Translations under genes and position numbers: made by a program | From: Raillietiella orientalis | Lineage: Eukaryota | Reading direction: 5' to 3' | Length of the DNA: 64,000 nucleotides | Assembly: GCA_036172245.1 (NCBI GenBank) | Contig: JAYWIR010000007.1 | Coordinates: 4,154,001-4,218,000 of the forward strand | In this document: positions 18,290 through 57,979 of the stretch, one piece after another | Layout: each line of letters begins with the position of its first letter | Position numbering within the stretch: the first letter of the stretch is position 1 | The notes under the pieces: model-generated | What the model was told of the DNA's origin: nothing | Databases searched by the model: none | The model's input: the letters and a program-made list of their open reading frames with translations, nothing else

Positions 18290-21200
18290 AACAGTGAACG
18301 ATTCACAAGGCATTCCCAGAAGTCTGGCTCGCTGCAACAGCTCGGACTGAATTTTCTGGTTAACCAGGATGGGTAGCGTTCCTTGGCACTTGGGCATTTT
18401 CTTGCACCTCCGGCAACATACATTGGTGTGTCCAGACTGAGACTTTTCTACCATTACGGACACCTATTTCTCTCTTTAGCAAGTCCCCTAAAGATTTCCA
18501 CACCACTGCAGTTCTCCCTTCTTGTCAGATGCACGTGATGAAGGAGGCGATGGTGCTTCGTATCCCGGGAATGTACAGGGGAAGGTCCCCTTCCCTTTAA
18601 TAATCCGCTCACGATGTCCGGTTTTGCTCTCTCCTCCAAACTTGTCACTTGCTTCAACGCCTTCCAATCCTGGAACAACGTAGGGCAGGAGAGCATGTGG
18701 AGTTGGGGTTCTCCTTTCTCAGCACGCATCACAGAGTTCGTCCCCAGGGTTTCTTCAGAGTCCTCAGGGTTGCGACAGTGGTGCCACCGTGTGCCACATA
18801 GCCCTCGGTGGTCAAACATCGATAGGCCATCCTAAATTTCAAGTCACAATCTTTCATGAAGGCTGTTATTTCGACTGCTCTTTTATTAGTGTAAACGCTC
18901 GCAACTAACATCCCCTTGAAGGTAAGAATTACTTTCTCGGCTCTCAACAGGGTCCATGAATTCCTTCTAGTGCATCGGAATTTCCAGATCTTATAATTTA
19001 CACGATCCTTTGTACTTGGAATATACCGGAAGAGTCGCATCTCGTAGAGGTTCCTGCTCGTTTACAAGCAGATCATAGGGTCGAGTCTACAGTTCTTGTC
19101 TTTAGTGAATCCAATATTCCCTTGCTTGTGAAATGAAAAGGAAATAGAGAAGGACATCACCAGGATCACCTCTTCCTCACAAAACTCCCTGCTTCTGCGA
19201 ACAACTTTCAGGTGGTTGGTGATCACCAACACTTGCTTCCTTGGCCACTTGGAATCAAGTCAACGTTCTGTCTTTGTCGATCATCGCAGCATAAAGAAAC
19301 ACTCACTTTTAAGTAGTTTTGAGTCGGTCCTGTGAGCAGTGTAGAGCCAATTGTCTCAAGCTGCAGTGGCTTGGAGGAGTTGCGGAGTCCAGGAAATGGA
19401 AGCTACGGGCTTCCTGCCGGTGTCAGCTTCCTCCCTCGAGAGACACAAGCAACGAAGTTTCATCTTTGATAAGTATTTCTTCAATAAGAGATTATCCTGT
19501 ACCTTCTATATTTGCAGCTTTTCTTTTTGCTGGTTCACTAAATACAAGGTATTCCTAAGAGAATCTGCAAAGCAGGACACTGTTCCACAGCTTTGTCTTT
19601 TGTTTAAAGCTAAAGTCTGACTGATTGTATCTGGTCACTTCTTTAGCTTTCTCTAGGATTTTCGTCTAACGTTCTTTTTGCTGTGAGGCGTCTTCAAACT
19701 GGAATTCCAAGTACTTCACAACACCCTCATCGTTAAAGTGGTCACATGCAGGATTCTGAGGGTAAAAAGTTTGGAATTCTGGGCATTGACTTACAGACCC
19801 AAACTAACTATTTACAGAAACGTATATTGATCCTTCTCGTCTTTAAGGGAGATCATCTGCTAATGCCAGGTGAGTCGGAAGTTCTCCTCCCACTTTGATC
19901 CTTTTAAGGTGTACATCTTGATGGATCATCAATGACACCGTCTTCATGCATATTACGAAAAGCATAGAACGCAGGACATATCGATGGATGCTCGTCTCCA
20001 GCCAAATTTCTTTCGTTTCTTCCATTAATTGGAATGTGGATATGTATGTTCCCCGCAGCATGCTTTCTACTTCTCTCTTATTAGATTTAGGATGCCAGTT
20101 TTCCAGAGATTCTTACAAGCTAACCGCGCTCCACAGTATCGAACGCCCTCTTTATGTCGATGAAGACCAGCATTAAATTTTTACTGATAGAACGGCTGTA
20201 GCAGATGGTAGCTTGGACCACTTCACGTTGTCAAGCATGTGATGGCCGGGCACAAAACATGTCTTCACTGGAATGATCACCGTAAGCAAACCTTCGACCA
20301 GCCACTCTGCTTTCATACTCAGGTAGGAGACTGGCCGCCACTGGATGCTCCTTTCAGCAACAGCCACATCCTACTCTTAAGAAACGGTCCCAGGAGTTAT
20401 CCTCCTTCCTTGTTCTTCTGTTTTAGCTTGTGAAAAACCGGTAGGTAGACGGGCAAACAACGCTGATATTGCGATATCGGAACACTATGAGGTCCCGCTT
20501 CCATGTCCTTGCGCAGTCCCGTGAACGCTTCCTTGATCCTTGATCAATGCAAAGATGAAGTCCTATGTATTTCAAGCTCCCCTCCCGCTCTGCCGTTTGC
20601 GTACATTTTCTGATACTGATTCAAGCGCTTGTCAATGGAATGTGATTTTCCATTACGCCAGCTACTTCATTTTTTTTCGACATATCGGAGACTAGAAAAC
20701 AGGTGCTTGGTGAGCATCATCATGTCCAAATCATCAACTCTTAATAGTAGTTCTCCTCAGGATCTTCCCTATGACGTCGTGATATGGTAAGTCGGCTTCA
20801 GAGCAGGTGGGAATGCTAGTGAATGCTGCCTTTGTTCCAGTAGCCTCCCACAGGTTACTCGTTTAAGTGTGCACTGCAGCAGATGGTTATCCAATAGAAC
20901 TATCTTAGTTTTTTGGAATTCCTGAAAATGCTTGTCAATGTCCTCGTTGTGCAGATCATGGTCCATCGACTTATGGTTAACCTTTGCACTCTGAACCTTC
21001 AGACCAATAGTTTGCTTATCTCCAAGATATCACTGCCCGTGTCGGAAGCTTTGTGGTTAAGGTTTCCGCGCGTGGCACCATGCGTCGTGGGTTCGAATAC
21101 TCCGGCAGAAACTGACGCCACTGCGTCGTTGGATTCTGAGTTTCTCCGGCAAGATGGTGCTGGTTGGCCTAATCATTCGGGCGTGGCACCGGCGGTGGAT

Positions 21201-26608: not shown

Positions 26609-27251
26609 AACAAGAATCTCATTTGCTAGCATTCCAGACTACCAGCCCTTATCTGTACACTTACACATATTGAAAGGACATAAATAATAAACATCCCTTA
26701 TCTTAGTAGTGCATCCATTTCAGTGAACAACTGTTAGGGAGAAATTGTTATTAGGGATTTATAAATGAGTGTGTATTTAAATGCATCCAATCAATTATGC
26801 ATTACCTTCTTCAAGGTGAGGTCTAAGTTGTATTTGTATTTTGCACTTTTTTTTCTGCATTCAGCACTTAGCTGATGGCATTGTTGTAATACTTTTATCT
26901 ATTTAATGGTAAAAGTTTTGATGACAGGTTGTAGGGTTATATTGCTCTTATTATCAAGTGGAATTCAAATGTGGCCATAATTCCTGTATGCAGTTACATG
27001 AACATCTTGCATGAAATTACCTGCTGCATTTCCAAATTATTTCTGTTGCTGACTTCTGCAACCAATAATTTTTTGAAATTTTTGTGAATGCTGGGCTAAG
27101 AACTTCGAAGTGTTTTATTCACTGTTCCTGTAATAGGATGGATCGTGGAAATTCAACAGGGTTGTGGGATTTTGTGGGAAAATGTGTTGGGCAAACTATG
27201 GGCAGAATTCTTTGCAGCCATTTGAGTACTATTTTTCAGATCTTCAGAATA

Positions 27252-28386
27252 ATGGACAAACCAATAGATGTGTTGGTTGTTGGATCTTGCATCATGGATT
27301 TAATCAGGTTACAGCTTACTGCTTTGCATGCTACTATGATATCTTTAGCTATGTGTCTACATTCCCTCAACCAGGAGAAACTGTAGAAGGAACTCATTTC
27401 CAAATGGGCTATGGGGGGAAAGGTGCCAATCAAGCTGTAGCTGCTGCTCTCATTGGTGCTCAAGTGTCCTTCATTGGACAAGTAAGGGTATCAAAACAAA
27501 TTTTATATGCTTGGCATTTGTTCAAGGTGGGCAATGATGAATATGGACATAAGTATATAAATCATCTTCAAAAGCATGGCATTAACACATCTGGAATAAC
27601 TACTTCTGATGCAATGACAGGTGTAGCAAGTATTGCTGTGGACAAAACAGGACAAAATTGCATCATCATCACTCCTGGTGCCAATATGTTGCTGCAACAA
27701 ATACATGTATCCCTCACTGAAAAAAACTTATTTCAAACTAAAGTCCTGTTATGTCAGTTGGAAGTCAACAAGGACATTATTCATCAGATATTGCTTCTGG
27801 CTTCCCAGCACAAGGGTCAGTTGTTATGTTGTCTGCATGACATGTGTATCCATCCAGTCATTTCAGTACTTAATGCAACTCCAGTATCCAACTGTGATAT
27901 GGAGCTTCTCAGATTAGCTACCATCATCTGTGTTAATGAAGTTGAGGTACAGTGAGACTGAGGAAATGCTAAGCTTTTAATTAGGCAACATGCTTGGTTG
28001 GGTTCAAAGTTGAAACCATTTCTGATGCCAAAACTGCCTTACAAAGAATGTTGGAATTAGGTTGTCATAATGTCATTATAACTCTGGGGGCAAAAGGAGC
28101 AGTTTGTGGATCCAATTCGATTCCTCCTGTTTTAGTTAATGCTCCAACAGTTGAAAAAGTTGTAGATACTACAGTTAGTACACATATCTTACATCCCTGT
28201 TCCTAATTTAATGAATTTCAGGGAGCTGGTGATTGTTTCTTAGGAACACTGGCATTTTTCTTATCCCAGAGTATGAATCTGGAATATCTCTGTGATTTCA
28301 CCACCAGAGCTTGCACTCTTGCCTCAAGAAGTGTCCAGAAATCAGGAACACAAACCAGTTTTCCGACATCTCTAGATGAACATTAA
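27252..28386 (+). CDS. RBKS: Ribokinase (PfkB family). Exons 27252-27307, 27349-27481, 27527-27815, 27858-27946, 27985-28173, 28222-28386
   Basis: VVGSCIMDL, P.PGETV, GGKGANQAVAAA, VGNDEYG, LLCQLEV, NEVEA, IITLGAKG and the spliced VDTT/GAGDCF motif. Introns are 38-48 nt GT-AG. Confidence 0.95.
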
Positions 28387-31249
28387 TTGCGCTTGTACAC
28401 ACTCCTGACCTTTTTAACTTCGACGTATATGCTCATTTGGTTAACTGAAAAAATTTTGTCATAAATTCATTTAGTTTTATTTAAATGGAAATAAATGTTA
28501 AATTAGCGAATTTCAGTAGCGTCTTTGACTTACTTAAAGGGTCCCACCTTAAGAGCTCTAATTTATCATCTAATCTTGGTCTAATGACATTAATTGTATC
28601 ACCGCTGATTACACTCTCACAGCACACCATGATGTCCCTAAAATGTACATTGCGAAACGGATCCGTTTAATGCACCGCTAGTGAACAGTCACAAAATTAT
28701 TTAAGACTACTGTAAAATTATGACAGCAAAAAATTATGAAACTTCATTGTCTTACTTTGATTTTACTTTCTTTAACAAAATTCTTGTAAGCAGCATCCTG
28801 TTCCGTTGCAATCCCAATGCAAAACCCTTTGGTTTTCCGCTACAACGCCGCACGGCTCGGAAGTGTCAGTCGTTTGGCTCACCTATCCAACGACGTGAGA
28901 AACTTACTGTGCATTCGATCAGAGGGAAGCAGTTATGTGGAGTGGAGCTGCCACGACCGAAAAAATTTCAAATTTGGAGATTCCACATTCGTAGAGCTCC
29001 CTTATGAAAATTTAACATATCCAGAAGAAAAAAAAAACGGGGAAAAAATACCCAGTCACTGGACATCGTGTCACAATGCAAGTTCTTTGACTTTCGATTG
29101 TGCCTTGGAATTCGATTATTATTTAATTTTCATCTTGTAAGTGTATATCGTTTTGATCATTAAGTTCTTAATAATAGAAATTATAAGATCCAATCACGAG
29201 GTAATATAAGAAATAGTGCAGTGAATACATTGGTTTTAGATGTCTAAGCATAATTTTTTAATAAGATGGGATGTATCTGAGCATTATAGGTCGTACACCC
29301 TTTGAGTGGTAATCGCCAGTTGCTTTGCTGCGAAGTTGGCTGCCTGAAGCTATAGGACTGAGCTGTGCTCGTGTCAGCTCGGTTTTCTAGCACTAAACTC
29401 CAAACGACTTTCATTAAATGTTCGGATTGCGAATAAAATCGATTCTTATATCATACCAGTATTCGAAAGGTGATAACTTCTTACTGCTATTTCACAAAGA
29501 CGAACTTGCACATGTTAGGTATTAAGCTAACTTCCAATTTTTTGATTTAGAGATTTATTTTTTCAGGCAAAAATTTCATTTTATAAATTCTTGGTAACTT
29601 TTTTGTTTTCTTAGGGCAAGATATCGACCTATTAATCTATAAGCAAAATTTGTTCCTCTAGATTCAGACAACTTCAAGAACATGCATTTCCATTTTCCTC
29701 TACATTTAGTCATTGCAAATTTTTGTGAAATTTCTAACGGTCCTTCGAATCTAATCAACTCCTAATGCAAACGATTCTGTATTTCTCAGAATGGGTGGAG
29801 GGGGGAAGTAGATGAGTGAATACGTGTCTTCTTTGCAAGAAATCGTCTGCTTTCTGTTTTCACTAAACGCACAAAAAAAAATTGGGGCACACTTTCCTTT
29901 CAGGAATATTTTCTTTTGTATTTGGTAGTTTAAATCATTCCAAATATTATATTATGATTGCTGAATCAGATGCTTTAATTCCACATACACAAAAATAATC
30001 TCTTATCTGTTGAAAACAGCTATTATGAACATATTACAGATTACCTTCTTTAAAATATTAAAACTACAAAATGCATGATATAAAGAACCTTAAAATTTTT
30101 CCGAGTACATTTTAAACTGCATCGCTTTTGTTTTATGTCTTTGATTTAGTCTCTATAACACTGCTAATAATTTCATGGCATTCTGAACGTACATTTGCTA
30201 CTGCATTCAGATATTGCCTGGAAGATTCCAGATTGGTTCTCCAGAATATTGCCCATATATAAGTATCTTCAATTACGAATTTCGATTTCAGTAACTTATG
30301 CACTTCATTTTAAAATTTCGAAACAAGCCGCTTTCCTTATTATGTAGATAGCGCGTACGTTTGCTTCTACTCATGACGATGTGCTGAACTTTTTCGTTTA
30401 TAATGCAGACTTTTGAATAATTAACATCCATCTGATTTCTGTTTAACTTACGTTGTAGGACAATTTTTTTGTCGTTGGGTGCTATTAATTGTTTCTGATT
30501 TAAAAAGCGGACAACAAAAAGTGGATATTCTATCACTTGCACAAACTATTGATACTCCGTTTGTAACGCGGAGCCATGTAATGAGGATTCTCTAGAACAC
30601 ATTTTCTTTTTTAACGATCGCTTTTAACGGATCATATTTTAATCTAAAATGTAACATCACATTTAAACAACATTTAAACATAACGATCCATATTTAACAC
30701 ACTTAAATTGCTGCAGAAAAACTGCTGATTATAGCTTAAAGTCTCCCTATATATTACAACACTTACATGGGTACTAAGGAACCAGTTTTTAAATCACACA
30801 CCTTGTATACACTGCTTCCCAGGCAAACGCCCTTTACATAACAACACAAATGTCTCGTTCGGGAATATTTAAGGATTTGCATTTATGTTTTTGCATTTAT
30901 TTTTTTATTTATTTGCATTTATACTTTTTCCAAACAGTTTGAATATTAGAAATGCTTCTTGCAGTCATGTTTCGGTTATCTTCAAAAGGAAAGAACTAAA
31001 ATTACGCTTGTATCTCACACAGATAACTGTTTGCCCAAACTACTCATTTGAAGTCTTAGTTGAGGAAAATAATTGAAGCTTTAGTAAAAGTGTGTAAACA
31101 AACCCGGTTTGTAAAAAGGAAAAGGAAGAAGAATTTTTTGTTTGGTTGGCATACCTTCCATCACTTCAAAATGTTTTGAGAAAAAATTAACGAGGTCCCG
31201 ATTACACACTGCGTCCCGATCCGAATATAAGTAAAAGATAAATGGTTTT

Positions 31250-31450
31250 CACGTTTTCCTAAAATTTCGTGTTTTGATAGCAAGGCGTTGTTTGCGTTTC
31301 GCGCCGCGCATATATCCGTCAAACGCGCCACAGCAGCGCCGTCGCGACACGCATTTTTCAAACTCGCTGAACGGATTAAAGTGAATTTCATCAGACTCGA
31401 GGCAGTGGTGTAGCACTGCAATCTCACGGTAACCAATATTTGAAATTCGC
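31250..31450. promoter_or_regulatory. CpG-rich promoter-like island
   Basis: Local CpG cluster (gcgtttcgcgccgcgc...gcgccgtcgcgacacgc) in an AT-rich background. It is followed on + by splice-like sites and an AAAATGGCG (YY1-like) motif at 31741. Confidence 0.4.
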
Positions 31451-34400
31451 AGTTGCTGGTGTTTTTGGAATGTGTGTCTACCTTTCGGTGTACAATCCTT
31501 CCCTCCCCTTGTGGAGTTTTAGGAAACTGCTTAATATTCACATCACTTTATCAGCTTTTTCGTTTACCAATTTTGCTTATTTTTGTTTTGCTCAGGGGCA
31601 TGTGATCATCCAAGTACACGAGCGATTTAATTAGGGTGTTAAAGGATGACGAGCATTTCTTTCCATTCTGTGAAGCATTTTCAATGAAACATGTCTCTGA
31701 ATGATATATGTTTTGCTGATTCTGAAGGAACTGCATCACCAAAATGGCGCATATCTTTTGCTAGGTATTATCAAGTATTTGTAGGCACATCAAGTTTCAC
31801 CTGTAGGTTGAATAAGCAATTTGTGCAACTTTGCATTTTTTGGAGAATTTCTGGAACTGATTCTTGATCGTGCACTGTTATGATGTGTCACAAGTGGGAA
31901 AACACAATTTAATCATAATCATGCCTAGTGCACGAGAGAGAAAACAGATTGGTTATTTTTATTTAGATGTATAAAATAATGATTTTAATGTATCTTTAAA
32001 TTCATGCATATCATTTTAAAAAAAATTCGATTCCTTTGTTTTCAAAACTTGAAGGGATCTTTAGAAAATTGACTTGAAAGTATTCTTAATGACTTCAAGT
32101 AAAGAATTCCAAATTATGAGGTAGATCTGCATCTATTCATAAAGTCTTAATATATAGTACTGAGTCATTTACAGTATGGTTGGAAAACATACAGATCATA
32201 TGATTCAGGTATTAAATGCATCCCATACTTTGAATCATCAAAAATTCTTCATATAAGATATGTTGATCATTTAGAAAACATTAAATGACTAGTTTCTCAA
32301 TAGAAGCATTATTGTCCATAGAAGCACTAACGAAAATTAATAAATTTTTGTCCAAGACTTCATTTTTCACGTGGGGCCTTTTGATATCCAATGAAGTGAA
32401 GAGTTTCATGATATTTACAAATTTAACCTGAAGAAGGAGCATTTGATATGAGATGGAATTCATTTAAATTATGGGAACGGATTATGGAATCATGAATGTT
32501 TAAGAAATAGCTGGTTGTAAAACAGGGTTTGCCAAACACACTAAATTCTTCTTTAAGAGTACACAAATTTAGAAAAAAATGATGCGAGAATCACAATTTA
32601 TAAAAAAGAATTTTAGTATTCCACCAACGTATTAATAGGTTGTAACAGTGTGGTATTTTATTTTTGCAATAAATTCAAAAAATCCATTCTATTAACTTAT
32701 CAAGTAATCAAAAAAGTCAAAATAATTCGATAATAATTTATTATGAAATAAGTTCTTTGAATGTTATGCTTTTATTTTTGCTACAGGTGTCAAAGTAACA
32801 CAAGAGAGCTCATTACATAACAGCAATAAAATAAAATTGATTGTTTTAACAAATATCTGTAACAAATATCAGAAATTTTTTACTGTTATTCCCCTTTTGG
32901 CAAACACTTTCGATGATTTGAAATTCATTTTCGAGCAATAAAAACGGATTGCTGGGAAATTGGGAAATATATCTCAATTCTTTATATAATTTCTAATGCA
33001 TTTCAGTTTCTAGATTAACAAATTACTGTCAGTTAATCCTTGCATGGCAGTGCTCGTGTTTTCCCTGGGAACTATGCAGATGTGATGAAATGTAGTAAGC
33101 AAAATAATAAATGCTTCGTAATTTAGGGAATCTCAACACAGATTTAATTTATGATGATCAGAGAGTTTAAAGTTGACCAGCAAGCAAGGATCAGTGAATT
33201 AATGTTTAAATGAAAACCTTAGTTTACATCTTTAAATGTTAAAAGAAGAAGCCAAGAAAATATTAAGAATAAATTTTCAGACTGATAAAAGTAAAGTGAA
33301 TACTTCACCTAGGAATAACTGAAATGTAACACGGAGTTATTGTTTGTTCTCAGTGTGAATTAACCGTGGGATTCTGTGATGGGGAACTAGTCGAAAAATA
33401 TCCGATGCTAAGACTTGAAATAATTCAGTATAAAAAAAATTGGGATGAAAACTAAATGTAATGGGCAATAAACACCTCTGTTTATCAGAACCCTACAGTG
33501 AAATGTCATTGGTGCATAAGGAATGATTGGATTTGTTAAAACAGTAAGAATAATGATATAAAAATCTTTTCAATGTGTATAAACAGATGTTTTGCAATTC
33601 TCTTATTCAACCATTCACTCCCTACCCTTTATGTGTAATTTTTGGGTCTGAAGGCAAGTATAACATTTACAAGAATATTACATTTGCTTTCAGAGAAACA
33701 GTATTCTTATAAGTACTTATTTAGAACTTGGAATATATAGTGAATACAGGGCAGCTTGAAGCACTTGGATGAATGTGAGAAAATGAGTTGAAAAAAGATC
33801 CTTTTACATTATTTCAAATAAACCTTATTTTTGTTAGTTCTCACTTAACATTGAAATGTAACTTGCAAAGTCTCGAAAACAACAAAGTGCCAAAAATAGA
33901 AATGGAGACGTAGAAGTCAGAAGTTTCTTGAAGAGCTGGAACTTCCATGTAGTCACTATGTTTCAAATATTTCATGTACTCTAATTCAGTCCTTGCAGTT
34001 GTAACCAGTCATGTTCACAAATGTTGAAAAAAACAACTGGAGTTAAAAAAACACTTTGTATAATGAAACATCCAGAAAACGTTGGTAGTATTAATGATTG
34101 ATCTTGGTATATTTGATGATACTTTAAGAAGTACCACTCTGAAGGTGGAAGTAAGAAGTGGCTGTGTAAGGTTGATATTTATAACTTAGTATGAACAGTG
34201 ATATATTTAATTAAGAGTGCAAAGAACATAAGACCCATTCAAAAACAGTTTTAATTTGATTGCCATAAACTAAAGGGTAATTTTAAAGTGAATGTGAAAA
34301 ATGCATAAAATAGCATGTTGCATGAAACAAGTAATTGTCTTTTGCCTGTTTCTTTTATTCCAACTTCTTGCGCTTCTTTACAAACATTCATTATTATTAA

Positions 34401-34570
34401 AGTTTAAAAAAGCACTTTATTTTGACCATCTTGGGGACTGGATTTTAGGTGTTTCTGCTTTTGTTTACAGGTTGATTGCAATGTCAGACCTGAAACAAAG
34501 CATCCTAATAGACTTCATCTCGGTGTAATTGTAGAACTTACATTAAGCCTAATACTGACATTCAGGGAAT

Positions 34571-35510
34571 ATGGCGGATCAGCCTGTAGATTACGATAGC
34601 TTTATAGCTCAGTTGCCAGACTTGGAAGACGGTGTGATTATAGGCCTCACGGATTATCGTGTGAAGCTCCCAGAGGAAGAGCACCTCCCAGTGCTTGTGG
34701 GGTCAAAAGTGTCTTGAAAAACCTAATATGCGAGTGCAGCGGCATGGGCAATCTCAACGCAGACATATTCGAAGGAGATGGAGCCTCTGTTATTGAATGG
34801 TTTATACAGTCTATTTTCATATGGTGTGATACACACCTGGAACTTGGATGGGCAAGATGTGCCTGATGGCAGCTGGAGATTCGTGACTGAGCCCTCATCT
34901 CTAACTGACAGTCAAGCAAGCCATTTATCCACAGTTTTAAACAAACAATTAACCAAAGAAATGTTTCTACTATTATTAGCAACAAAAGCCTCGTTTTGGC
35001 TTTGCAACAATCACATTGGCACTGCCAAGAGTGGTAAGAAGGGGACTGGTTATTCTATGAAAGTTGCAAAACTATACTTCGGCAAATATGATTTGGACAA
35101 CGTTATGTCACTTGCAAATCAGTTAGGCCATTACATGAGCACAGGTCACATACTCAATATGGCTGGAATTGAAAACAGCACCCACCAAAGTGATCCCATC
35201 GTATGATATGCCTCATGAGCTTTGGCAAATGTCAGATGCAGTCTTGTGGTTCAGATCAGGCCCAGCTGGGTTTAGGAGACACCAAGTGGCATATGAGGCA
35301 TTTCAAAGACTCTTATTGTCACCATATGCCTGCGCAAGGGAAGACTTTTCTGACTCGTATGTGGATCATTTCCTAGGTAGGCTCGGGTCGTACATGCTTA
35401 GTCAGTATTCGAAGTCGATCATTACGAAGTCATGACACTTTACGATGACTTCAATCCAATCGAAAGAGGATTCCCTGAGTGGAATTCATTTTGTGAAGCC
35501 ATTTCCTGCA
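34571..35510 (+). pseudogene. Endogenous viral element: disrupted nucleoprotein-like gene of a qinvirus-like negative-strand RNA virus
   Basis: ATG at 34571 is in frame with ORF 34778-35206 apart from stops at 34715 and 34724; frameshifts near 35180 and 35435. Motifs ATKASFWLCNNHIG, GYSMKV, LGHYMST..IL, FRSGPAG, FSD...LGRLGSY and KS*HF match my recollection of qinvirus-type NP (ATK.NWW..NHH.G / GHW.ST / S.PAG / LGRLG / SPH). The body is intronless. Confidence 0.65.
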
Positions 35511-35552
35511 ACAAAACTGTCTGTCCACGAATGTACCAATTAGAAGAAATTG

Positions 35553-36316
35553 CTGACTCTGATATCGCCCAATTGCATGTGGAGGTGTTTGGTATGGACA
35601 CAGATATCTCAAGACCATCTGGAATTCTAGCTCCTGAAGCATTGTCAGGAGTATTGGAAGAAACTACTGACCCTGATATCACTCAATTGCTTGTGAAGAT
35701 GTTCGCTGTGGACACAGATATCTCAAGACCATCTGGAATCCTGGCTCATGAAGCATTGCCAGTGGTTTGCCCATGTTCCTCTGGTTGTTTTCCCCGAAGT
35801 AAGCAGTCCCAAACAGGATAGGCACCTGCCCCTAAGTGCAGCAGGGGAGTTATCGAGGAACATCCTCCTCAAAGCCTAGACAAGTAAATGACTTGTCACT
35901 TAGTTTGTGATATTCACGAAAATTTTGTGATATTCAGGAAATTATTGTGTTTTCATTATGGTTGTGTTCTATTGTATTACACTGCCTATTAAATAATCTA
36001 TGACTACTGACTCTGATGTTGCCCAATTGCATCTAAAGATGTTTGCTATGGACACAGATATTGCAAGACTGTCTGGAATCCTGGCTCCTGAATCATTGCC
36101 AGTGGCCAGCCCATCTTCCTCAGTTCTGGAAAACTAGATAGCCTAGGAAGTAGGGAGCCCCAGAAAGGAGAGGCAACTACTCTTACGTGCAGTGGGAGTT
36201 ATCAAGAAACATCTTTCCAAAAGCCTAGATGAGTAAGTGACCTGTCATGTAGTTTGTGATATTCAGGAAAGTATTGTGCTTTCATTATGGTTGTGTTCGA
36301 TATTATACTGCCTATA
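35553..36316 (+). repeat. Nested tandem duplications at the 3' end of the EVE
   Basis: A ~90-nt unit (D.DI.QL.V..F..DTDISRPSGILA.EAL) starts at 35553, 35667 and 36007. The larger block 35663-35988 is repeated at 36003-36316. Confidence 0.9.
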
Positions 36317-37357
36317 CAGTAAACTACAACTGTGTTTAAAGTTTTAAGAAAATAAAGCCAAGTTTTATCAACATTTGTGTTTTGATTTAGCTTATTGCAT
36401 TCATTCTCATTGGGAAACTGAACTAGAGGCATGAAACTTTCAGAACATAAAAGGGTGAATATTCCAAAGTTAATATTTCACCTTTTTGGGTATGACAATT
36501 GACAATCCTTAGTGTTGATTACTGAATTAATCACAAATTAAAATGATCGCACTTGTTTGCAAGTATTCTTAATGTATTCATTCATTAGCTGTCTTGCTTT
36601 TAATACCACTTTGCAGCTGAATGCAAATTACAAAGCATAAGTAATTCCAACAATTTAGTGATTCTGATCTCAAGCAAAAAAAAAGGGAGGCGATTTTGCT
36701 TTCAGTTGCTTTACCAGCCTTAAATTACTATTCTTATCTATTTTTTAGTTTTCTATGAACTCAAACTAGAATAACAGCTCCATTTATCTAAGCGAAATCT
36801 GCACATGCTCTTAATACTTTGTTGATCTCATCATGTAAGCTGCAGGGTTTCCCAGATAATATGTGCTAATAAACAAACCAGAGATACAAATGTAAAGGAT
36901 TAAAGTAAAAACTATATATTGGAATAATCTGCACTTTAAAGAAAAAACAAAACTGTTAAAATCCTATTTGTGTTCAGTTTTTGTATTTCTACACTTAGCT
37001 TTCAACACTATTATTCCACTTGGCACTTTGCAACAGAAAACACAGAGCAACACACAGTTAACATAGAAATTCTTTATCACTGCAACATGCACATATATCT
37101 TCCCTGGTGGCTCAGTGTGGTGATCAGTTTTTGAAATTTCCCTTCAAAGGCTGTAATTGTGGTAGAGATTTTCAATGTATCTGCAATGTTCCAAAGTGTA
37201 ATAAATGGAATGATTTTTTCTCTCAATCAGGATATGGAATAACCACACTTGTTGATTTTTTGATTTAAAATTCATCCAGACTTAGGTGCATCTTAAACTA
37301 TCTTGACCTTTTCTTTATACTAATTTTTTATGAAGCTGACTCTTCAATATAAGACAT

Positions 37358-40300
37358 TCACATACTTACATTGGAATTTTCCATTTTGTACACATGGCAA
37401 CTTATATCATTGCTATCATTTGTACCATTAGCACTCACTTCACTACAGTTTTTGTCATGTGATGCTGCATGGGACAAAGCATGGTCTAAGAACTTCACTT
37501 TTCCTGTGACAACAAGCTTACACGTAATACAGTGATAATGTATCCGTTCTCCTAACCATCGTTCATTTTTATTTTTCATCAGCTCCACATAACAGTTTTT
37601 CAAACAGGGAACAACTAATTTGTTATTTACAAGTACACCTTTTTTGACATGGACATTAACCAAATGTTGAATGACTGGATCAGAACGTTTGAATGTATAT
37701 CCTCCATCAGCACATAAAGCACAGCGAAACTGTTTACCACTACGAATTATCAATTTCATAACCTGTTCCCTTTTCAAGCGATAAACACTATTCTTTTCTC
37801 CTGATTCTGGGCAAACACTGGTTCTTTTGGAAGGAATGTCACTTTTGTCTTTTAATGATGTTTCTCTTCTTGATCTTTTCTTTCGTGTTGTAGGAGATGT
37901 GATTCCTTCATCTGCGTCATCAGTTTGATTGCTTAATAATTTATGACTTCCATCAATAGTAGTTTCCAATCTTCCACTTTTTCTCAACGTATCATTTTCT
38001 GGAGGTCTGGAAATGACTGAACTTCTATGTTCCTGCATATGCCGGACATACAGTTGCTTTTTAAAAAACAATTCTCCACACTGGGTGCAATGATAGTGGT
38101 TTTTATCTGTATGCTGACAATCAGTTACAGAGCAGGCACTTTCACCAGTTAATTTAGAATTCACAGCTTTGCTCACAGGATCAGAAGCAGTAGCAGTGAC
38201 AGAGTCTCTAGTTGATGAGATAGGAAAGGACTGTTGGAGGGCGTTTTCAGTTAATGACACTACATCAAAGGAAATGGTGACTTTATGTGATATTGTATGC
38301 AGCAAAAAAGCATTCTTTCTCATTACAGCTTCATTACAAATAGGGCAACAGTAACTTTCCTGCTCTTCAGCTGATTTCTTGAATGGAAGGCAGATCCATT
38401 TCTGATCAACAAGTGCCACTTCTGCTTGATGATACATTTTGAGATGATTTAAAATCATTGATTTCATTTCGAGGTCCACAGAAAAGGGACATAATTTGCA
38501 TCTGTATTGTTGTGCTGTCTGTTCTACACACATATAAAACAGCTCAGCAGGATCCCTTCTTAGATCTTCCAGCTTGATCACAGAAATCAGCTGCTGAAAT
38601 TTAGTTTCTTTTTCAATGCTTGTAATTTCTTTGCAATTTTCTGTTGACAGATCACCTGCCTCATTATTTACAGCTAATTTTACAAGTGAAGGAAGACCCT
38701 CAGTGAAGGTCTTTTCCTTTAAATCAAAATCTGTTTCTAAACTTTCAGTCTTGTCATCGTAAGTGGTAGTGCCCTCTTCTGCTGACTTGTCATGAGCACA
38801 AGGTAATCCATTTGTTGAATAGGGTTCCATGATTGTTTTTTCTTCATAGTCGGTATTCTGATCAACATGATTGATTTCGCCTTTGAAAAAGGATGGATTA
38901 GGATGACGCTGGACATGTTTTAAGAAACTTTCTCTGTCTCCAAACACTGTTAGTTTGCAGAGAGGGCAGTGGTAATGAGTAGAATTAATGGCTCCACAAC
39001 TTTTCATGCAAGGAAATGCAAAATCCAAATCATGAATGGAAACTCTTTCTTCCCAATGTTCTGTAAGGACATGTTCTTGGGCATCAGTCCATTTCTGAAT
39101 ATTTGTCTCAAAGTCGCAATATTTGCAATGGCAACTATCTTCCACCACATGTAACAGCTGATCAAAAAGGATTCCACTGTCTTCTATGGTTTCTGATGCA
39201 AAATTGAGTGGTGATGTTAACCTATTGGTGCTATTATCTGAAGCAACCTTCTCCAGTTTTTCCAATTTAATAAAGCAAGGAGCAATAGCATATTTTTTCA
39301 GATAATGGCAAGCATCAAAATTCTCTTTTTCATCCTTGTCTCCAGTGTCTGAGTTGATCTGGAAACTTAGAAATGGACTTCTTCCAACTTCTTCTAGAGT
39401 TCTAGAACGACCTTTCAGACCCACTGTTTCTTCAATTAATCCTTCCAAATATTTCTCAACATCTTTCAGATAAACAGGATCTTCTTGATGTTGCAACTTC
39501 ATATGACCTAGAAAACAACTCTGCCTCAAGAACAGTTGTTTGCAAATAGGGCAGTGGTAATGCATGTCTTGGTTGCAAGGATTACAAGCTTTGCAACAGG
39601 GTAAACAAGCCCATTTATCTTGCACTACAATGAAATATATAGCATGAATCAGGTAAAGATGCTCTTCAGCCTCTTGCTGACTGGAGAAATGAACACTTTC
39701 TGGACAAAGAAGACAATGCTTATATGTAACTTTATCTATTTGGGAACTATAAGTCAAAGATTGAATGATACGAGAAATGTCAAGTCCATTTACTAGTGCC
39801 CAGTATTTTCTAATACGTTCAATTTTGTATTCCGCTGGTTTGGAAGTGAAGGAATTCAGCTTCATTTCTTCTACTTTCTCATTATCATTAATCGATTTTT
39901 GTGCAGTTACCTCTGACTTACTCAAAGCACTAGAATTTTCGCCATCTTCTGTTTTCACCTCTTTTACTTCACTAATGTGTCTCTTTTTCAATCTTGATCT
40001 TTGATGGCTATTTTCTTTATTGCCAGAAATTTCTTTTTCATTGCGGGAAGGGCAAGAATTCTTAAGAATTCCTTTGTGTTCTTTAATATGATCGATAAAA
40101 GTTTGCTTGTGACACACAGGTTGACGACATACAGGACAATGATAATGCAAATGATGAGAGGGCAAGTTTTGACATGGTTTGAAACAGGGGAGACACAACC
40201 ACTTGCTCTCCACAGTGATTTTGTCTTGAAAATGGACATCACTTAGATGTCGACGGAATTGGACTTGATCAAAGTTGTTGCCTGGAGGACATAATTTACA

Positions 40301-41059
40301 CAGTATCTGTCCATCTTTCTGTTCCATCAGCTTTTCAGCATGCTCATCTGGAAATTCGGCTTCCTTTTTTTCCCATTCATTTCCTGCATTGAGTTGATTG
40401 AGACATGGAACTTCTTTTTTGGGGACAGCATCAGCTTCATCTTGTTTGGAGATGGAAGATGTTTCAGTTGGAGAGTTCTCTTCTACTTTATTGTCCTTCA
40501 ACTGAGATGGACAAATAATTTGTTTGTCTGGTAGGACAAATCCTATTTCAGAGAATTCTGGAATATTTTCGAAATTATGATTATTTTGTTTACCATTATT
40601 AGATCATTTTTACCTGAAGATGTATCCACATTCCCATCACATGAATCATTGCTTTTATTTTCTTTTGCATTTACTGCACCGCATTCACTGTCTTTTAAAC
40701 TGGCTGCTGTTTGTTCCACTTTGTGCTTTTCTTCTGTAACTACAGGATGACGATTCAGCTCAGTTTCAACACAAACAGCAGCATTAGCTGTTGAATGATC
40801 TGCAAAATTAAGTACTAAAAGTCAAAAGAATTTAAAGAAAACACTGTCATAAATTTCAAAATTCCAACAGACTTGTGAACTGCTTACCTGAAGTCTCTGC
40901 ATCTGTTGCAGAAATGTCCAGTGTGGTGGAATTATTGATTTTATCTTCTAGAAGTTCCTCTTTAATAAAAATATCCTTTGGATCATTGCTAACACTTTCA
41001 GTTTTCAAAGCACATATTTCATTTAGATTTTTGTCGCTTTCATCTTTCATAGTTATCAT
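37358..41059 (-). CDS. Large multi-zinc-finger-like protein with a repeated CxxC..H..H / C.PC..C..HYHCPxC..H..H module. Exons 41059-40888, 40799-40614, 40557-~37358
   Basis: 1047-codon ORF extended 5' by two frame-consistent GT-AG exons. An AG directly precedes ATG 41059, so an upstream exon is likely. A GTAAGT donor at ~37369 suggests the true 3' end may be spliced. Confidence 0.85.
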
Positions 41060-47000: not shown

Positions 47001-49539
47001 TGTTCTTTCCCGTTGGCGCGTTTATCGACGGTGCAAACATGAAACTTGAAAACAGGCGCTTCATTTCTTTCTCCATATGGAAGAAAAAAACACACACATC
47101 ACTTTAACGAGTGATGTTAAAGTGCCTGTCGTTGAATTTGTGTGCATATTAATTGTGAGAACACATGGAATGTTAAGCGTAAGAAAAGATCTGCCTATAT
47201 CCTACACAGGCATCTTTGTATTTGTGCTACTTTACTGTTTCCGTTTGTTGTTGTTTTTAACCAAATTTCTGTGCCATCGGCAGTCCACAAAAATCCTGAC
47301 AACACGAAATTTACATGACTAAGTTGACATCATTGGTGGGCGATCTCTACCTATGTCTGTTCCAAATTTTACCATTTTTTTCATGAACGAATCGTGCACA
47401 CTGAATGTCAGCAGGTAGTGGCGCCGCCATTATCTGTTGCAGTGGTGCTCCATGTCTTATTCTCCTTGCATATTATGTTAAAGGTCTCAGAAGTTTTGCC
47501 TCATTTGCATAGCAGAGACAAACTGGCACCAATGCCTGGTTGCTTATTGAATGTAATAGCAATTATTTATAGCTTTAGCTGAAAACACTATCAGTGGATA
47601 TTATTGTAAGCATTTTTTGACTTCTATTAGGTTGCAGTGTAATTTCATTGCCGCGAGCATAAGGTGGTAAGTGTTGAAACTCTTGTTTCCAAACCCACAA
47701 ACGAGGTGATTCGGGATTTACTTTCGTGCAGTTCTTTATTACCTGTTGTGATTATTCAGTGTGATCACAATTCTAGGCGAAGGTTTAGATGACTATGAAG
47801 CCAGTAGCCCGGAACTTGGAAAATCTTCCAACTCCAGCGTTCTGTAAGGGAATCAAAACTTCTCACTGACTCTTATCCGGATAGCAGCACAGAATTTATT
47901 GCGTCATCAAGTACTAGAAGAGAGTTGATGTGGAAATCCCGAGCATTCATTAGAAAGTGCAATTACTAACCTTCGAATTGAAATAAGCAAGCGTTCAAAC
48001 TTTTCCTCTCGTTACCTCGATCTCTGTAAATGCTGTTTCAATTTGTGTTACTTCTGTGAGTTATTTGGGAGGTGCAGAAACGCGAATCCTGTTCTTTCGG
48101 ACGCTTTAAAGATCAGAATCTCCGAGATGATTCAAACGAGGAATTCTTTTGAGTTTAAAAGTATTGATCCGATTTCAGAAGTCGGAGTGTCGATTCCCAC
48201 ATCACGCGAGACCGAATTTCTTCGTTGGGATGGTCAAGGAAGCGGCGTGTCGCAAATTTTTCGGTCTGCTCTTCCTTTCTCTTTCCAGCTGTAGTTAAGC
48301 TGTGGCAAAGGAAAACTATGATTAATCTGGGATGTTTTACTAGGTCGCGTCACAAAATGTAGCTCAAATCACAATTTGTCATTGAAATCCGAATTTCACA
48401 TCGGTTTCAATATGTTTTCTAGGTAATTTTTGTCGACACATGTGAGGGACAAAAGACAAAATTATTGAGGGACAAAATTATTCTTTTTTTCAGTGTTTGT
48501 CTTATTCATGCAATATGCATTTAAAGGCGTTTAAGTGAAAGGTGATACAAAAAAGATTCGCCTACGTGACTTTACCGAGCTTTGTCTCTGGGAAGACCAT
48601 GTGCAGCTAACAGTAAGCTTTAGTCGGAAAAGCGATATCTATCTGCGTGAGATTGAAATTATAGAAGGGAAAAAATGGAACTTTGATAGATTGTTTTGTT
48701 TTCCTTTTTTTTTCTCCCTTTCTTTCTTTGATCTCCTTGCTCTAGATCCTCGTATAATGCTCTCCTCATCCGAAACTCCTCTCTTTGGCGGTTTTCTGAT
48801 TTAAGCCCGAATTCGTTCAGTTTACAATCAGAAGCTCCTAATACACTCTGTGCTCCACACGCTACTCCAGCACTGAGAAAACTGAAAAAGAGCTCCACAA
48901 TTTGGGCATCATCATTAATGCTGAACATTTCGTAAGCAAAGAGTCTACTGCTCCTTATGTTTCGAACCGAGAACGGCCTAGTAATTTTAACATTTTCATT
49001 TTTTGACATTTTTTTTTCCTCCTAACGAGACGTCACACTGCTTATCAGTTCATCTCGGGTTTTGCGCCATTTCGACCAGGTGAACTGAAGATGCCACCTT
49101 GCATGGTGGCAGCCAATTTTCTCTGCAATCAAATGCAAGTCCAGAAATTGCCATTCTGTGAAGGCAAAACTTCGTTATACACCCCAACCAGTGTTGCCAA
49201 TCTTGATAACTGGCACTCGGTGGAGTATCTTCTGCTTCTTTGTTGTTGCTTTTTTTTTCTTTCTTCCTTTGGAATTCGAGTGCTGTTCTCAAAGTGTTAT
49301 CTTTGGTTTGATTGTCTCCAACAGAGTTTTTATTTTTAATCGAAAAAATCTAACGTTGTTTCTCTATGGAACACGTTCTCGAACCCACGTTCATGCTATT
49401 TGTTCCATATTTTCGTTTTATCTGTTTGTTTTAAACGAAAGTGCACAAGAAGCTTTAGGAATTTTCCTCTAATCTAGATTAGATGTTTTTCCTATTCTAT
49501 CGAAACATAAAAAGTGAGCACCATAACACTGCATAGAGA

Positions 49540-50885
49540 AACCTGTTCTTGTTTCGTTGGACACTGTTGGGCACCAAAGCAGTCTTAATGAGGTACCTAA
49601 GCAGTATGCTGTACTGCATATCGAGAATACCATAGCAATGAAATTATCAACTTCGAATCGGTTTAAGGAGGAAAGAAGCAGCGGACCAGAGAACCGTGTA
49701 TCGATAAAGCAAGATCGTGTCCGGAGAGCAGAGATGGCTAGCGTCAGCGAAAGTGTGACTGCAATTGAACACGAATCTGTACCCAAAACCTAGCATGTGA
49801 AGATGGTCGTTGCATCACTGAGCTTGCGTCTTGACTTGGGGACATCTATTCAGGGCAATGGAGAGCAAAAGTTTCCCTACCTATTTTCCCTTCACATGGA
49901 GTTTGGTTGACAAAATGTATTGAAAGGAGAGCTGGAAGCCAATTGAGATGCAGTTTGCGATGAGTTGCACGTGTGACGAGAGCAAAATGGAAGACTTTTC
50001 GTGAAGATGCAGCCGACCACGAGACATGGCTGCTGCATTGTATGCGCTAGCATGCAATGCAGAAGAATCATGCTGAGACGAAGGGAAGAAGAAGCGAAGG
50101 ATGACCACACCAAGGATACGAAAACCGGAGAGGTTTCACCTACTTCAGACAAAAAGAGATCGTACTGGATAGGGAATTCTGAGGGTTCACAGCGACTACT
50201 CGGACCAATAATTTCGAACAGAGCCTCTTATCTCTCTGTTGTAAAGCTACATGGAGAGATTCGTCTCAGTCCTCAGAGATTTAAACACGCCCTGGGCTGT
50301 GCTCCACCGAAATGTTTCCATGCCTGTCTCATCCACCACAAGATTCAATCGCATCCAGAAATCCACTTTTTGTTCCCGACAAGGGTTCTCCTTGGGGTTC
50401 ATCACACGCTTCTGGTTAGACCACGCGATAACAGAGGATGCAAAGAGAGTTTATCAGTCCACTCTGTCACGTCCGGTAAGTGGCTTTGGTCCCCATTCTA
50501 ACGCAGAATCTTTTCCCCCTTTTACTGAGCAGAAGGTCTAGTGCTTTGGTCACCTCTCTTTGGAGGAAGGGAAGGGAAAAAGCCTTCACAGAGTTCTCTG
50601 GTCGACCGGATGAAACACAGAACTGCTGACTCGTCCTCTGGAAGGAACGGTTACCGCATCCATGGGATGCAGCACGTGCTCCTAAGCCTCCAAGAAGGTG
50701 GAACTATTTATCCTCCTGTTCCGCCGGGACGTTTAATTCAGAAGAACCGAACAAACCATCTGGGAACCAAGTTCCCGGACTGAGGGATAAGAAGTTCAAG
50801 GGGAGGGCTCCTCAACACGCAGGTCGGGCACCGTGAAGTCCGGAACAGGAGGGAGGTATAATTTAAAAACAAAATACAAAAAAGA
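49540..50885 (+). mobile_element. Decayed RLE-type non-LTR retrotransposon, 3' part
   Basis: LDTVGH (~AFDTV.H) at ~49557, SIKQD (~GVKQGD) at ~49700, KHALGC...LIHHKIQ (CCHC/RH region) at ~50285-50350, A-rich tail at 50861-50885. Confidence 0.5.
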
Positions 50886-51499
50886 TATGGTGGGACAGGG
50901 GTCTTTGGCTTCGGCCGTTTTCTTTGTTTCAGAACCGGCGCTGAATGCTGGTGAGATCCTTCCTTGCTTCTTCCTTGAGATGAGACCACCTAGCAGCCAC
51001 CCTCGTATTGGCAGCTGCAATCCTGGTGACCTCCCTGGGTAACGCTTGCGATTGCAACACGTGGTGGGCCTTTACGATGGCAAAGAAGGTGGAATCGTGG
51101 GGAGGGATGGGGGCTGCTTCTTTCCCAGAGAAACTTTTCCCAGAAGTATCGAGGTGATTGCGTTGCTCATCACCGCGCCCGCGTTTATACTTTATCCGTG
51201 AGATTCGACTTTCCCGAGGAAATTCAGCCGTGGTCCACGCTGCCGACACCTGCTTTATAGTCACTCCTGTCTCGCCCTTCACTTTTTTCGTGCAGGGATT
51301 ATTCGTCGGGAACGGAACGGACACACAGCAGTCTTCAGGGGGTTCGAACCTTCGTGCAAGGGCTAAGGAGAGGGAGGAGCGCACCCCAGTCGGCTCCGGA
51401 GTGGAGCTGGACGGAAGGATGTCGGTCTTCGATTCCTGTCCCTGCAGTTCTGGCTCTTCCCGCTGATTTTACACCGAGTTGGGAGGAAGAGCGCACGTA

Positions 51500-52650
51500 T
51501 GCTGGCAAGGCGCCGAAACGAGAGTCACTCGTAAGCAGAGGGAATCAGAGAGAGCGCTGTGCTCGCGATATCTTGTTCGCTTCAGTCCTTCGATCTCCTC
51601 TTAAGGAGGAGTTGAGCCGAGTCCTTCGCGCATTGCACGTCACGTGATCTTCGATGAGACTTTCAAGACCTTAAGGGACGAGTCCTCGGAGATTTCGCAG
51701 GCATTTCCGTGAGCTGCGCCCGCGCACGGAGAGACGGCGATGCCATGTGTGAAGCGCTTTCCCGGCTCACGCTGATAGGGGTGGGGGGTGAGGGTCACGA
51801 GCAAAGTCACGCGAAATGCCGCATCGCAGGCTCTTCACTAATGGGCAGAGTCCAATGGAAGCCTGCTCGGTCCAGCTCGTTCAGTTCGAGGATCCAAAGA
51901 AACTAAGCTGTCCGCCTTGGGATAATCCGACGTCGCAGTTCCTCCGTGGTAGCTTTCCCCTCACTAAGCGCTCACACATGCATGTTGCTCGCATGGTGGC
52001 CAACCCGAAAGCGGCACTTTGCTTCCGGCAGCTCTCCAAGGAGACTGAAAATGGTGCATCACAAAGACTCAGAGGGATTTTTTTTTTTTTTTGCTTTGCC
52101 CTACAAGCAGGGCGAGCCCGTCGCTAGGCAACGAACCGGTTTTCCTTCGGAAGTGGCAAGTGACCAGGGGTGTGCAAGACGAAGGGAAGGCATGGCGGAT
52201 CCAGCCCAGCTCCCTTCCTTGCTCGGCCGCTTCCACTTGAAGACTTGTGAGCAGGCAAACCGCAGGTGGCCGCTCCCCCTCGGCGCGCATCCCTGAGATT
52301 TCCCGCGACTCCCTCCTGCAGGTGCGCAAACCCGAGAAGCTCCAGGAACGCACGCCAAGCTGCAGGGAATGGGAAAAATTCGACGCGGCCTTCTTCCTGC
52401 TCGCCGTGCGCTCCCCATTTGGTCCCGGGAGTTCGTGGGAGCAGCTCGTCATCATCGAGAGGGACGAATATCCTTAAAAAGAGTTTGCCGTGGCTCGCTT
52501 TCGCCTCAATACGGAAGTGGGCAGCTTTCTAACCGGATGAGGTATGTGGCATTCGCGGAATCCCTTCCTGTGAGGCGGCGGAGACAGCACGCTCGGGTCG
52601 AGGAGGACGATGGGACGTTGAGGTTTTTCCTGGTGGGTCGGGGGCCAGCA
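51500..52650 (-). mobile_element. Possible gypsy-type RT relic
   Basis: Minus strand reads IFVPLDDDELL (~FVYLDDIL) at ~52460 and FLELLG (~LEFLG) at ~52340. Heavily decayed; boundaries approximate. Confidence 0.3.
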
Positions 52651-53099
52651 GACAAGGTGGGTGGCAGCTTAACGCGGACTATATTGGCTGCTTTCCCCTG
52701 CCTCCCGGAAGACTCCACCCATACTTGTTCTTTTTTTCCTCTCTCTCGGTCTCTCCAGTGGGAAGGAGAGGGGGAGGCCAATCCAAGGAGAAAGGACAGT
52801 ATAGTGAAAAGGTCAAAGATCGCGGTAATCCCATTGGTTCATCGCCCGGTCACTCAGGGATCTCGTTATGGAAACAGCGCATGTGGGGTGATTCCCGGTC
52901 CCACCACACTCGCTGCACGCGGAACCCGCCGAGATGCTGGTGCTCACGCAGCCCGGCGAGGTCCGCCTCCGCAGCGAAGGGGAAGGAATAGAACGAAAAG
53001 GGGAGTAAGGGGAGGAGGGGGGAAAAGGAAACAAGGAAAATGTTCTTTGGTGGATGGCTCGTTGCTAGACGTCCTCTGCAACATTCTTCCCAGGACGCC

Positions 53100-54750: not shown

Positions 54751-54839
54751 AAATCCTTGGGTTCTTCTTTTTCTTCTGTCTTCGCTGTTTTCCTTCCAGC
54801 TTTTTTCTTGTTTTTTGGTTTTTAAGAGTTTTCTTTTTT

Positions 54840-56900: not shown

Positions 56901-56909
56901 CGATCCAAG

Positions 56910-57778
56910 TCCCGGAAGATCTTGAAAATAAATATGTGTGCTTAATGCATAAATTAATGCATAAATTTACATAGAGATCAATGCACAGATTAATATATAT
57001 TTAAAAAATTGTAAAAAAAATAAACACATGTGATTATTGTGTATCGCAGCACATAATATACACATAATAACAGCCGTTCCTAACTTGCATAGATTAATAA
57101 ACATTTATTTTAACATATATATTAATTCATATTTACTGACAAACATACTATTAGTATAATTTATAATTTGTCTGCTATATATAAATATATATATTCATAT
57201 ACAGATTAATATATGGATTCAACTATCTTATAAAGATTTTAAAAAATAAATACATGTGCTTATCATTTACATTTACATATAAATAAATATATAGGTTATT
57301 ATATTATGAAGAGGATACTCATCAAAAGAATAATGTATGTTAATATTATTTATTTACTATGGATATTAATATAACATGCTTATAAAATATATTTATGTAT
57401 AGATTAATATATACATAAATATATATATCCCAAAGATGGCAAAAAACAAATAAAAATATTATTAATTATATCAAAGTATATAATGTAATTAATTACATTA
57501 ATAATATTAAAGATATTAAGGGTATGTCAATAAATGACAGCATACATACATGTGTTAAAATCATATTAATATTAAGGACATGTATGTTAATAAATATGCA
57601 TGTTAAAATAAATTGCTATATTTATCCCTATACAAACACGTATACGTGATATACAATAGCAAGCGTGTACATTCATTTTTTATAATCTTTGTAATACATA
57701 CATTAATCTATACATAAATTTATATATTACTGTATGTAATAAGCGTATGTATTTATTTATTTCAAAGATCTTCCTGGA
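56910..57778. mobile_element. AT-rich island with imperfect terminal inverted repeats (foldback/MITE-like)
   Basis: Left end TCCCGGAAGATCTTGAAAATAAAT... versus reverse complement of right end TCCAGGAAGATCTTTGAAATAAAT..., with loose similarity over ~70 nt. Internal AGATTAATA motif recurs at ~56987, 57091, 57203 and 57401. Confidence 0.55.
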
Positions 57779-57979
57779 TTTTGAAGTTCGGGGCTTTGAA
57801 CCAACCCCCTTTTCTCCCCCCACCCGACCACCCCCGCGTACTGCCGTTCACGCGACGCTGCCCGCGGCGCTCCCGGAGCTCCGCCGGTCTCATCGCCAGT
57901 CGCCACCACCGCGCCCCGAGCAGACGGAACTTCCGCCCGGGCGCGGCTCGCAGTCCACCTTCCGGGGCTCCTCGCGCTG

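Follow-up and report, generated by a model that had tools for sequence, protein, structure and literature searches.

The window, by which we mean the whole 64,000-nt stretch of Raillietiella orientalis DNA analyzed here, contains on its + strand a broken copy of a nucleocapsid (N) gene that starts with an ATG at 34571 and extends to ~35610. The copy sits in a 5.4-Mb contig with host genes on either side, in keeping with the first-pass annotation, which had placed it between ordinary host loci. Its upstream neighbor is a PfkB-family (ribokinase-like) gene (27137..28390, + strand; Pfam PF00294, E = 1.5e-24; end coordinate read from the sequence). An AP-3 beta gene is located further upstream, at 84-85% to spiders and crustaceans and 81-84% to many other animals; by this gene the host is a bilaterian and probably an arthropod, and none of the matches came from a close relative. 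The downstream neighbor is an open exon of 1,081 codons with no Pfam match (37358..40603, - strand). The GC content is 44% for the element compared with 31% for its flanks, and it drops to the host level beyond ~36300. This embedding among host genes marks the copy as a non-retroviral endogenous viral element (EVE). No DNA-level twin of it was found in the genome, and it is unusual among the related copies described below only by lying between host genes and 14 kb from any LINE, the distance to its nearest LINE-like match.

The reading frame is intronless and disrupted. The two stops reported on first reading, TGA at 34715 and TAA at 34724, are both present and in frame from the ATG, and a third, TGA at 35433, falls within the 'S*HF' word of the motif series on which that reading had relied. 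We aligned the region with a family profile of 110 members and 439 positions. Nucleotides 34592-35200 corresponded to profile positions 4-200 (141.6 bits), and the match continued in the next frame with 35211-35330 at positions 204-243 and 35334-35471 at positions 280-325, whereas none of 600 shuffled frames scored above -0.2 bits. Given these frame jumps and skipped positions and the far lower scores of the shuffles, the two frameshifts and a deletion of ~35 codons are real. In tblastn searches, 159 of 168 proteins matched this region, and their matches within the window were confined to 34580-35609.

The copy can thus be described from its 5' to its 3' end, all features being on the + strand. 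The N-terminal 60% of the protein is encoded in a single frame at 34571..35200, with the first two stops. The first frameshift lies at 35200..35211, where the profile match shifts to the next frame. The middle of N follows at 35211..35471, with the third stop and the deletion at 35330/35334, seen as a gap of 33-35 residues relative to the paralogues and to protein P0025; the segment noted earlier as missing between SPYAC and AREDFSD is therefore indeed absent by both profile and paralogue alignment. The second frameshift, identified by alignment to paralogue L002, is at 35471..35478, later than had been implied. As the homologous frame runs on to 35471 and 'YDDF' is in another frame, this last word of the motif series is a chance look-alike. 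The C-terminal helix and the start of the N tail (35478..35617) display weak homology, with 24% identity to L002 and tblastn matches up to 35609, so that the element reaches about 100 nt past the end at 35510 given initially. The tail itself is duplicated as far as 36326. A 114-nt tandem duplication (35539..35762) has units 85% alike that diverged near neutrally, with 5 synonymous and 11 non-synonymous changes, and a 340-nt duplication (35663..36326; units 35663-36000 and 36003-36326, 73% alike with gaps) covers the end of the tail and a probable 3' untranslated part. An AATAAA is present past the duplicated tail (36351..36356), a weak signal at 1.1 such words per kb in the region.

Direct comparison with the N protein of Wuhan insect virus 15 gave 27% identity over 128 aa for the N-terminal part of the window copy (E = 1e-15), and a second alignment gave 28% with a 35-residue gap (E = 4e-7). 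A profile built from 10 host frames retrieved 474 cluster representatives at E ≤ 0.001, 114 of them at 1e-30. Of the 150 profile matches listed, 30 were looked up, and three of these were named qinvirid small-segment proteins, those of Wuhan insect virus 15 (YP_009342457.1; E = 5e-67), Sanxia qinvirus-like virus 1 (YP_009337850.1; E = 5e-42) and Shahe qinvirus-like virus 1 (YP_009337853.1; E = 9e-26). The remaining ones were some uncharacterized insect-genome proteins and, for the most part, unnamed products of contigs of 1-3 kb. The other named matches were uncharacterized proteins from insect and fluke assemblies, and no transposon or characterized cellular protein, the kinds of best match held at first reading to speak against a viral origin, was found among the named matches. 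Identity to outside proteins was 26-35%. The intact window frame of 159 aa had 40 matches in its own genome but none among 956 candidates in a word-index search; its homologues were thus reached only with the paralogue alignment.

Other searches yielded no informative match. Pfam had none for the element or for seven paralogue frames, Rfam none across the window and the PDB sequence search none; the ESM Atlas returned only unrelated matches, all under 0.9, and a first scan of viral contigs gave 65 pattern matches of which 0 were confirmed. The mononegaviral L families PF00946 and PF14318 had no match in the genome, their controls being blank as well.

For structural comparison we used the open-frame paralogue L010, whose model had a pLDDT of 89.6; the N-terminal stretch of the window copy folded alone, as a single-sequence model, reached a pLDDT of 34 and was unusable. 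The L010 model gave eight viral matches at E ≤ 0.001. Ranks 1-6 were named qin-like proteins (TM 0.66-0.74), followed by one unnamed protein and then by a far weaker yue-like protein (TM 0.43 and 12% identity, compared with 0.65-0.74 and 16-31% for qin-like proteins), so that L010 is nearer to qin-like proteins than to those of yueviruses and yue-like viruses. Foldseek against solved structures found none at E ≤ 0.001. In a wide search of solved structures, the top 10 rows were all mononegaviral nucleoproteins with middling Z scores of 4.5-6.1, and ranks 1-3 were the N proteins of parainfluenza 3, mumps and Sendai viruses (Z 5.6-6.1, rmsd 4.7-5.7, 219-228 residues aligned). The predicted fold agrees with the ICTV profile, which describes Qinviridae N as structurally related to mononegaviral, especially paramyxovirid, nucleoproteins (PMC10721934), and the accessible part of a structure study clusters Qinviridae N with Haploviricotina (PMC11315766).

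The qinvirus-like nucleoprotein identity proposed at the outset is thus upheld by the direct alignment with N of Wuhan insect virus 15, the profile matches to named qinvirids and, at the level of the paralogue, the fold predicted by the structural check suggested then. The window copy is a broken endogenous copy of a qinvirus small-segment N gene. Membership in the Qinviridae is defined on the phylogeny of the L-segment RdRP, and it is by N sequence and fold that the copy counts as the remnant of a small segment from a qinvirus. It is colinear with the three Yingvirus N proteins over ~325 profile positions and has the same motifs and predicted fold, but it is only 26-28% identical to them, belongs to a separate host-associated clade and consists of broken chromosomal DNA with a duplicated tail.

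The window copy is part of a large family. Run over 53 fetched loci, the profile delineated 48 N stretches on 30 contigs. Pieces under 12 bits were dropped, a few of the stretches belong together as a single interrupted insertion, and the count is a lower bound. The flank GC of the window copy is the lowest of the 48. In an IQ-TREE phylogeny of the N-terminal half, for which 31 host rows had enough columns and three near-twins were omitted, 28 host rows were separated from 36 outside proteins by a branch with support of 98/96, and the window copy belonged to a five-member subclade (100/98). A FastTree of the C-terminal part, which no longer included the window copy, grouped 25 of 26 host rows together. 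One copy, L006 (G000:C84:53058-53991), was with the host copies in the N-terminal tree and outside them in the C-terminal tree; it may be chimeric, or this may be noise.

We then compared pairwise the 37 copies that covered 100 or more profile positions, which formed 33 groups. Of 540 measurable pairs, four were near-identical and none differed by 0.1-0.35, and the median fourfold-site difference was 0.73. Close pairs had pS of 0.75-0.95 with pN of 0.07-0.2, in contrast with one pair of host duplicates, for which pS was 0.028 and pN 0.024. From a single host clade with saturated synonymous sites, we infer about 30 separate captures, an approximate count because non-overlapping pieces cannot be linked. 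The simplest reading would be that the divergence between copies arose while they were still fast-evolving RNA viruses, with each then captured on its own.

Several other observations were made in the family. The near-identical pairs (in G000, C17:6275 and C184:30958, C1:8080723 and C57:792089, C33:625912 and C72:171921, and C81:62421 and C161:47385) represent either duplications of recent date or haplotypes left uncollapsed in the assembly. A divergent subclade on a long stem (G000:C89:101653-102720, C63:471410-472543 and C10:4500509-4501260) has the highest fourfold-site GC (0.59-0.65), near the GC-rich background of the genome, and its members are candidates for older or host-adapted copies. 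A mitochondrial-like fragment, which we take to be ATP6/COX3-like, lies beside a close sister copy (L002:2600-3444, on G000:C9), and fragments of CRESS-virus Rep (PF02407) adjoin N copies at L019:3000-3683 and L028:754-1257.

How these genes entered the genome was addressed through their surroundings. LINE-like matches occurred within 2 kb of 32 of the 48 copies compared with 6 of 40 random 4-kb stretches (p = 1e-6), an enrichment favored by the LINE queries having been drawn from the flanks of the same copies, even with self-matches removed. The neighboring LINEs were on the same strand only as the copy in 26 cases, on the opposite strand in 3 and on both in 3. The same LINE-like 3' end, oriented alike in all four cases, directly precedes the viral leader at L051 (C20:2945672), L027 (C22:3213573), L021 (C35:2191780) and L007 (C103:150025). 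These ends are 85-92% alike in most pairs, with saturated synonymous sites in N, which fits template jumping by one LINE family, provided that this non-coding stretch is indeed a LINE. Within the window, the closest LINE to the element is a frameshifted reverse-transcriptase fragment at 19728-20215 (- strand).

Sister copies also retain what appear to be the ends of the captured segment. Short motifs shared between copies mark both ends, occurring before the gene in five copies and behind it, at 16 or more of 23 matches, in 7 of 48 compared with 1 of 40 random stretches. In three sister copies the distance between the shared end motifs is 1.69-1.77 kb, the size of a qinvirus S segment (1.6-1.9 kb in Qinviridae; PMC10721934). 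The pairing of the two motifs in these three copies was modest, 27, 5 and 21 of 500 shuffles being as strong, and the two ends of the window copy did not pair better than those of controls. An 18-nt end pattern had 10 matches in the genome versus 27 for its reversed control; its four exact matches all lie before N copies, yet the pattern was built from those copies. No A8 run was found behind any of 25 copies. With both segment ends retained in sister copies and no poly(A) behind them, the template was apparently genome or antigenome RNA rather than mRNA. The window copy itself has no A8 run, no LINE within 14 kb and neither end motif, and age may have erased the marks of LINE insertion there. 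A candidate target-site duplication, TTAAAGTTT at 34397 and 36336, is put down to chance, since 53 of 99 control pairs were as good as this 9-nt match. The route of entry of the window copy is therefore deduced from its sister copies.

We also noticed a possible splice signal in the leader. In the window, an acceptor-like site (34422..34470, + strand) is composed of a pyrimidine tract with CAG|G at 34470, 100 nt before the ATG, and a branch-point-like word 44-48 nt upstream; it might be of viral or of host origin. This site is borderline, as it fails the strict rule and passes only with a branch-point window that was widened afterwards. A tract-only rule found an acceptor in 8 of 23 copies. 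With a rule combining branch point, tract and YAG, set after the sequences had been seen, 9 of the 25 copies that keep their 5' end (two twins dropped) were positive, compared with 1.9 expected from shuffles, and all nine sites end 44-70 nt before profile position 1. Among the same 25 copies, the rule was satisfied once on the antisense strand, never in either of two coding windows and five times further upstream; in random tiles the rate was 4.9%. Six of the nine positive copies belong to one subclade, and three other branches are also positive. Between two copies, likeness extends from -306 to -1 and then stops, and in one pair the leader is 73% alike where fourfold sites are 39% alike. With likeness confined to this interval and conservation above that of fourfold sites, the leader was part of the captured unit. 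Strong donors were present upstream of only some acceptors, leaving the extent of the intron unfixed in most copies. Judging from these signals, what was captured looks like small-segment RNA in full length and unspliced, with a splice acceptor in it.

Outside the host genome, 2 of 16 testable leaders passed the rule, with 1.8 expected, and that of Wuhan insect virus 15 failed; some of the failing leaders may come from spliced or truncated assemblies. Two contigs deserve mention. L116, a metagenome contig of 2,969 nt with a qin-like N, has AU-rich GT-AG blocks at 906-989 (84 nt) and 1684-1791 (108 nt), and the second contains all six stops that split the N frame; it represents either a qin-like virus with introns or a host gene that arose by domestication. 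In L105, a 64.5-kb contig from another organism, a 41-nt GTAAGT...TTTCAG block (1440-1480) precedes an open qin-like N frame, its end lying 20 nt upstream of the start codon. It could support a spliced qin-like N, or be a domesticated host gene instead. Whether some qinviruses transcribe in the nucleus and splice their N message, the fossils being unspliced S RNA with its acceptor, is in our view an even bet from sequence signals.

Taken together, we put at about 0.9 the probability that the window copy is a pseudogenized, non-retroviral element, derived from a small-segment RNA of a qinvirus (order Muvirales) that was reverse-transcribed, inserted into the germ line and left to decay, one of about 30 such captures from a single host-associated virus clade. 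A qinvirus would have infected the host lineage, an enzyme supplied in trans, most likely that of a LINE, would have copied its small-segment RNA into DNA, and the cDNA would have been inserted between two host genes. Unconstrained decay would then account for the three stops, two frameshifts, one deletion and two tail duplications.

The two other accounts of the family as a whole appear improbable. A single ancient domestication event, after which the qinvirus N gene expanded into a host gene family kept by purifying selection, would explain the single clade of host copies and the long open frames of several of them, and the acceptor would be that of a host 5' UTR intron; host genes typically carry acceptors 20-40 nt upstream of the start codon. 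However, likeness ends at fixed end motifs, ~300 nt upstream and 220-390 nt downstream of the matched region, and beyond them the flanks differ or are LINE ends, much more alike than the saturated synonymous sites of N. The leader is conserved above synonymous sites, unlike a host intron, and recent host duplicates evolve neutrally. Retrocopies of a spliced mRNA should moreover have lost the acceptor and kept a poly(A), and no A8 run lay behind any of the 25 copies tested. Slightly less probable still is a source outside Qinviridae proper, such as a yue-like or unclassified bisegmented virus, or viral DNA of a symbiont assembled into the host contig. It draws on the low identity to outside proteins and on the lack of a polymerase copy to place the source, and the confirmed qinvirus hosts named in the accessible text of a 2024 paper are so far trypanosomatids only (PMC11108086). 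The far weaker yue-like match argues against the former source, and the latter is at odds with RNA viruses having no DNA stage and with decayed copies spread over 30 contigs among animal genes and sharing LINE families.

At the window copy itself, recruitment by the host has to be considered, before or after the frame was broken, with the viral sequence as last exon of a spliced host RNA. We regard this as unlikely, though less so than the two accounts above. The layout would consist of a CpG-rich promoter near 31.3 kb, where CpG peaks at 31250-31500, non-coding exons, the acceptor at 34470 and the AATAAA at 36351. On the + strand of 1-48000, CAG|G with a strong tract occurs only at 32786 and 34470, both upstream of the copy, and two such sites were obtained in 4 of 200 shuffles, but the acceptor rule was picked after the site had been seen. 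No other coding gene was seen by eye on the + strand between 28400 and 37358, and the low flank GC and absence of a nearby LINE would also suit recruitment. Against it, the acceptors of sister copies belong to the viral leader, and the one at 34470 may therefore have arrived with the virus. The tail duplicates diverged near neutrally, and the frame has three stops and two frameshifts.

Two rough clocks fit unconstrained decay of the copy. Three stops in 891 nt correspond to ~0.08 changes per site (0.02-0.24), and the three tail copies differ pairwise by 0.16-0.20, i.e., ~0.08-0.10 each. The two estimates agree at ~0.08 per site, and decay looks neutral; conversion to an absolute age needs a substitution rate or relatives. 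A domesticated gene is expected to keep an intact frame under purifying selection, but here the frame is broken and the first tail pair has pS of 0.195 and pN of 0.134 over 36 codons. The copy encodes no protein now, and any role would be at the RNA level.

Endogenous bornavirus-like N elements are nucleoprotein EVEs made by LINE enzymes, and the copies described here resemble them in deriving from the N gene of a negative-strand virus and in their association with LINEs. Unlike such elements, sister copies keep both segment ends without poly(A), and the window copy lies outside LINE piles. The same-strand LINE bias is likewise shared with LINE-made N EVEs and with those arthropod EVEs that, in the accessible text of one report, are often located in piRNA clusters (10.1101/396382). 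EVEs derived from qinviruses have been published before. Camponotus floridanus EVE7 is described, in the portion of the paper at hand, as a single qinvirus-derived polymerase fragment (PMC6540820), and a Qinvirus clade figures among the arthropod and basal-hexapod EVE groups in the available section of another (PMC6955108). As far as these excerpts go, they are germ-line fossils of the same kind, whereas here dozens of N copies are present in one genome. We found no N-gene series in the literature searched on qinvirus EVEs, although supplementary or subscription EVE tables may list such copies. Taken singly, the window copy is a viral fossil of an ordinary type. It gains its value from the series to which it belongs, and the series of about 30 N captures and the leader splice signal are what is added.

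Qinvirus hosts have mostly been deduced from pooled RNA. The presence in a single animal germ line of dozens of decayed N genes, each captured separately, is direct evidence that this animal lineage was infected repeatedly and over a long time, and it would provide a time series of a host-bound virus clade. Nuclear residence, if true, would explain how about 30 strains were captured by one host lineage. Replication and translation of Qinviridae are listed by ICTV as unknown (PMC10721934). Introns have been reported in nematode yue-like viruses (PMC12770441) and in bornaviruses, orthomyxoviruses and two rhabdo-like viruses (PMC10101049), according to the parts of both articles that are accessible, and none was reported for Qinviridae in the papers found, as far as their accessible parts extend. 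The GT-AG blocks and acceptor signals described here would be similarly placed in a haploviricot segment, though known from sequence signals alone. The captures and the leader signal are of added interest because they make the site of qinvirus replication testable with existing reads: the conserved acceptor and the two outside contigs predict that reads spanning splice junctions occur on the small segments of qinviruses and that viral RNA is present in the nucleus.

Lastly, GC content rises sharply in the distal part of the window (49000-64000), from ~36% to 60%. LINE-like fragments are present there at 53082-53444 and 55572-56170, the 15 long frames have no Pfam match, and random stretches of the genome span 31-71% GC.
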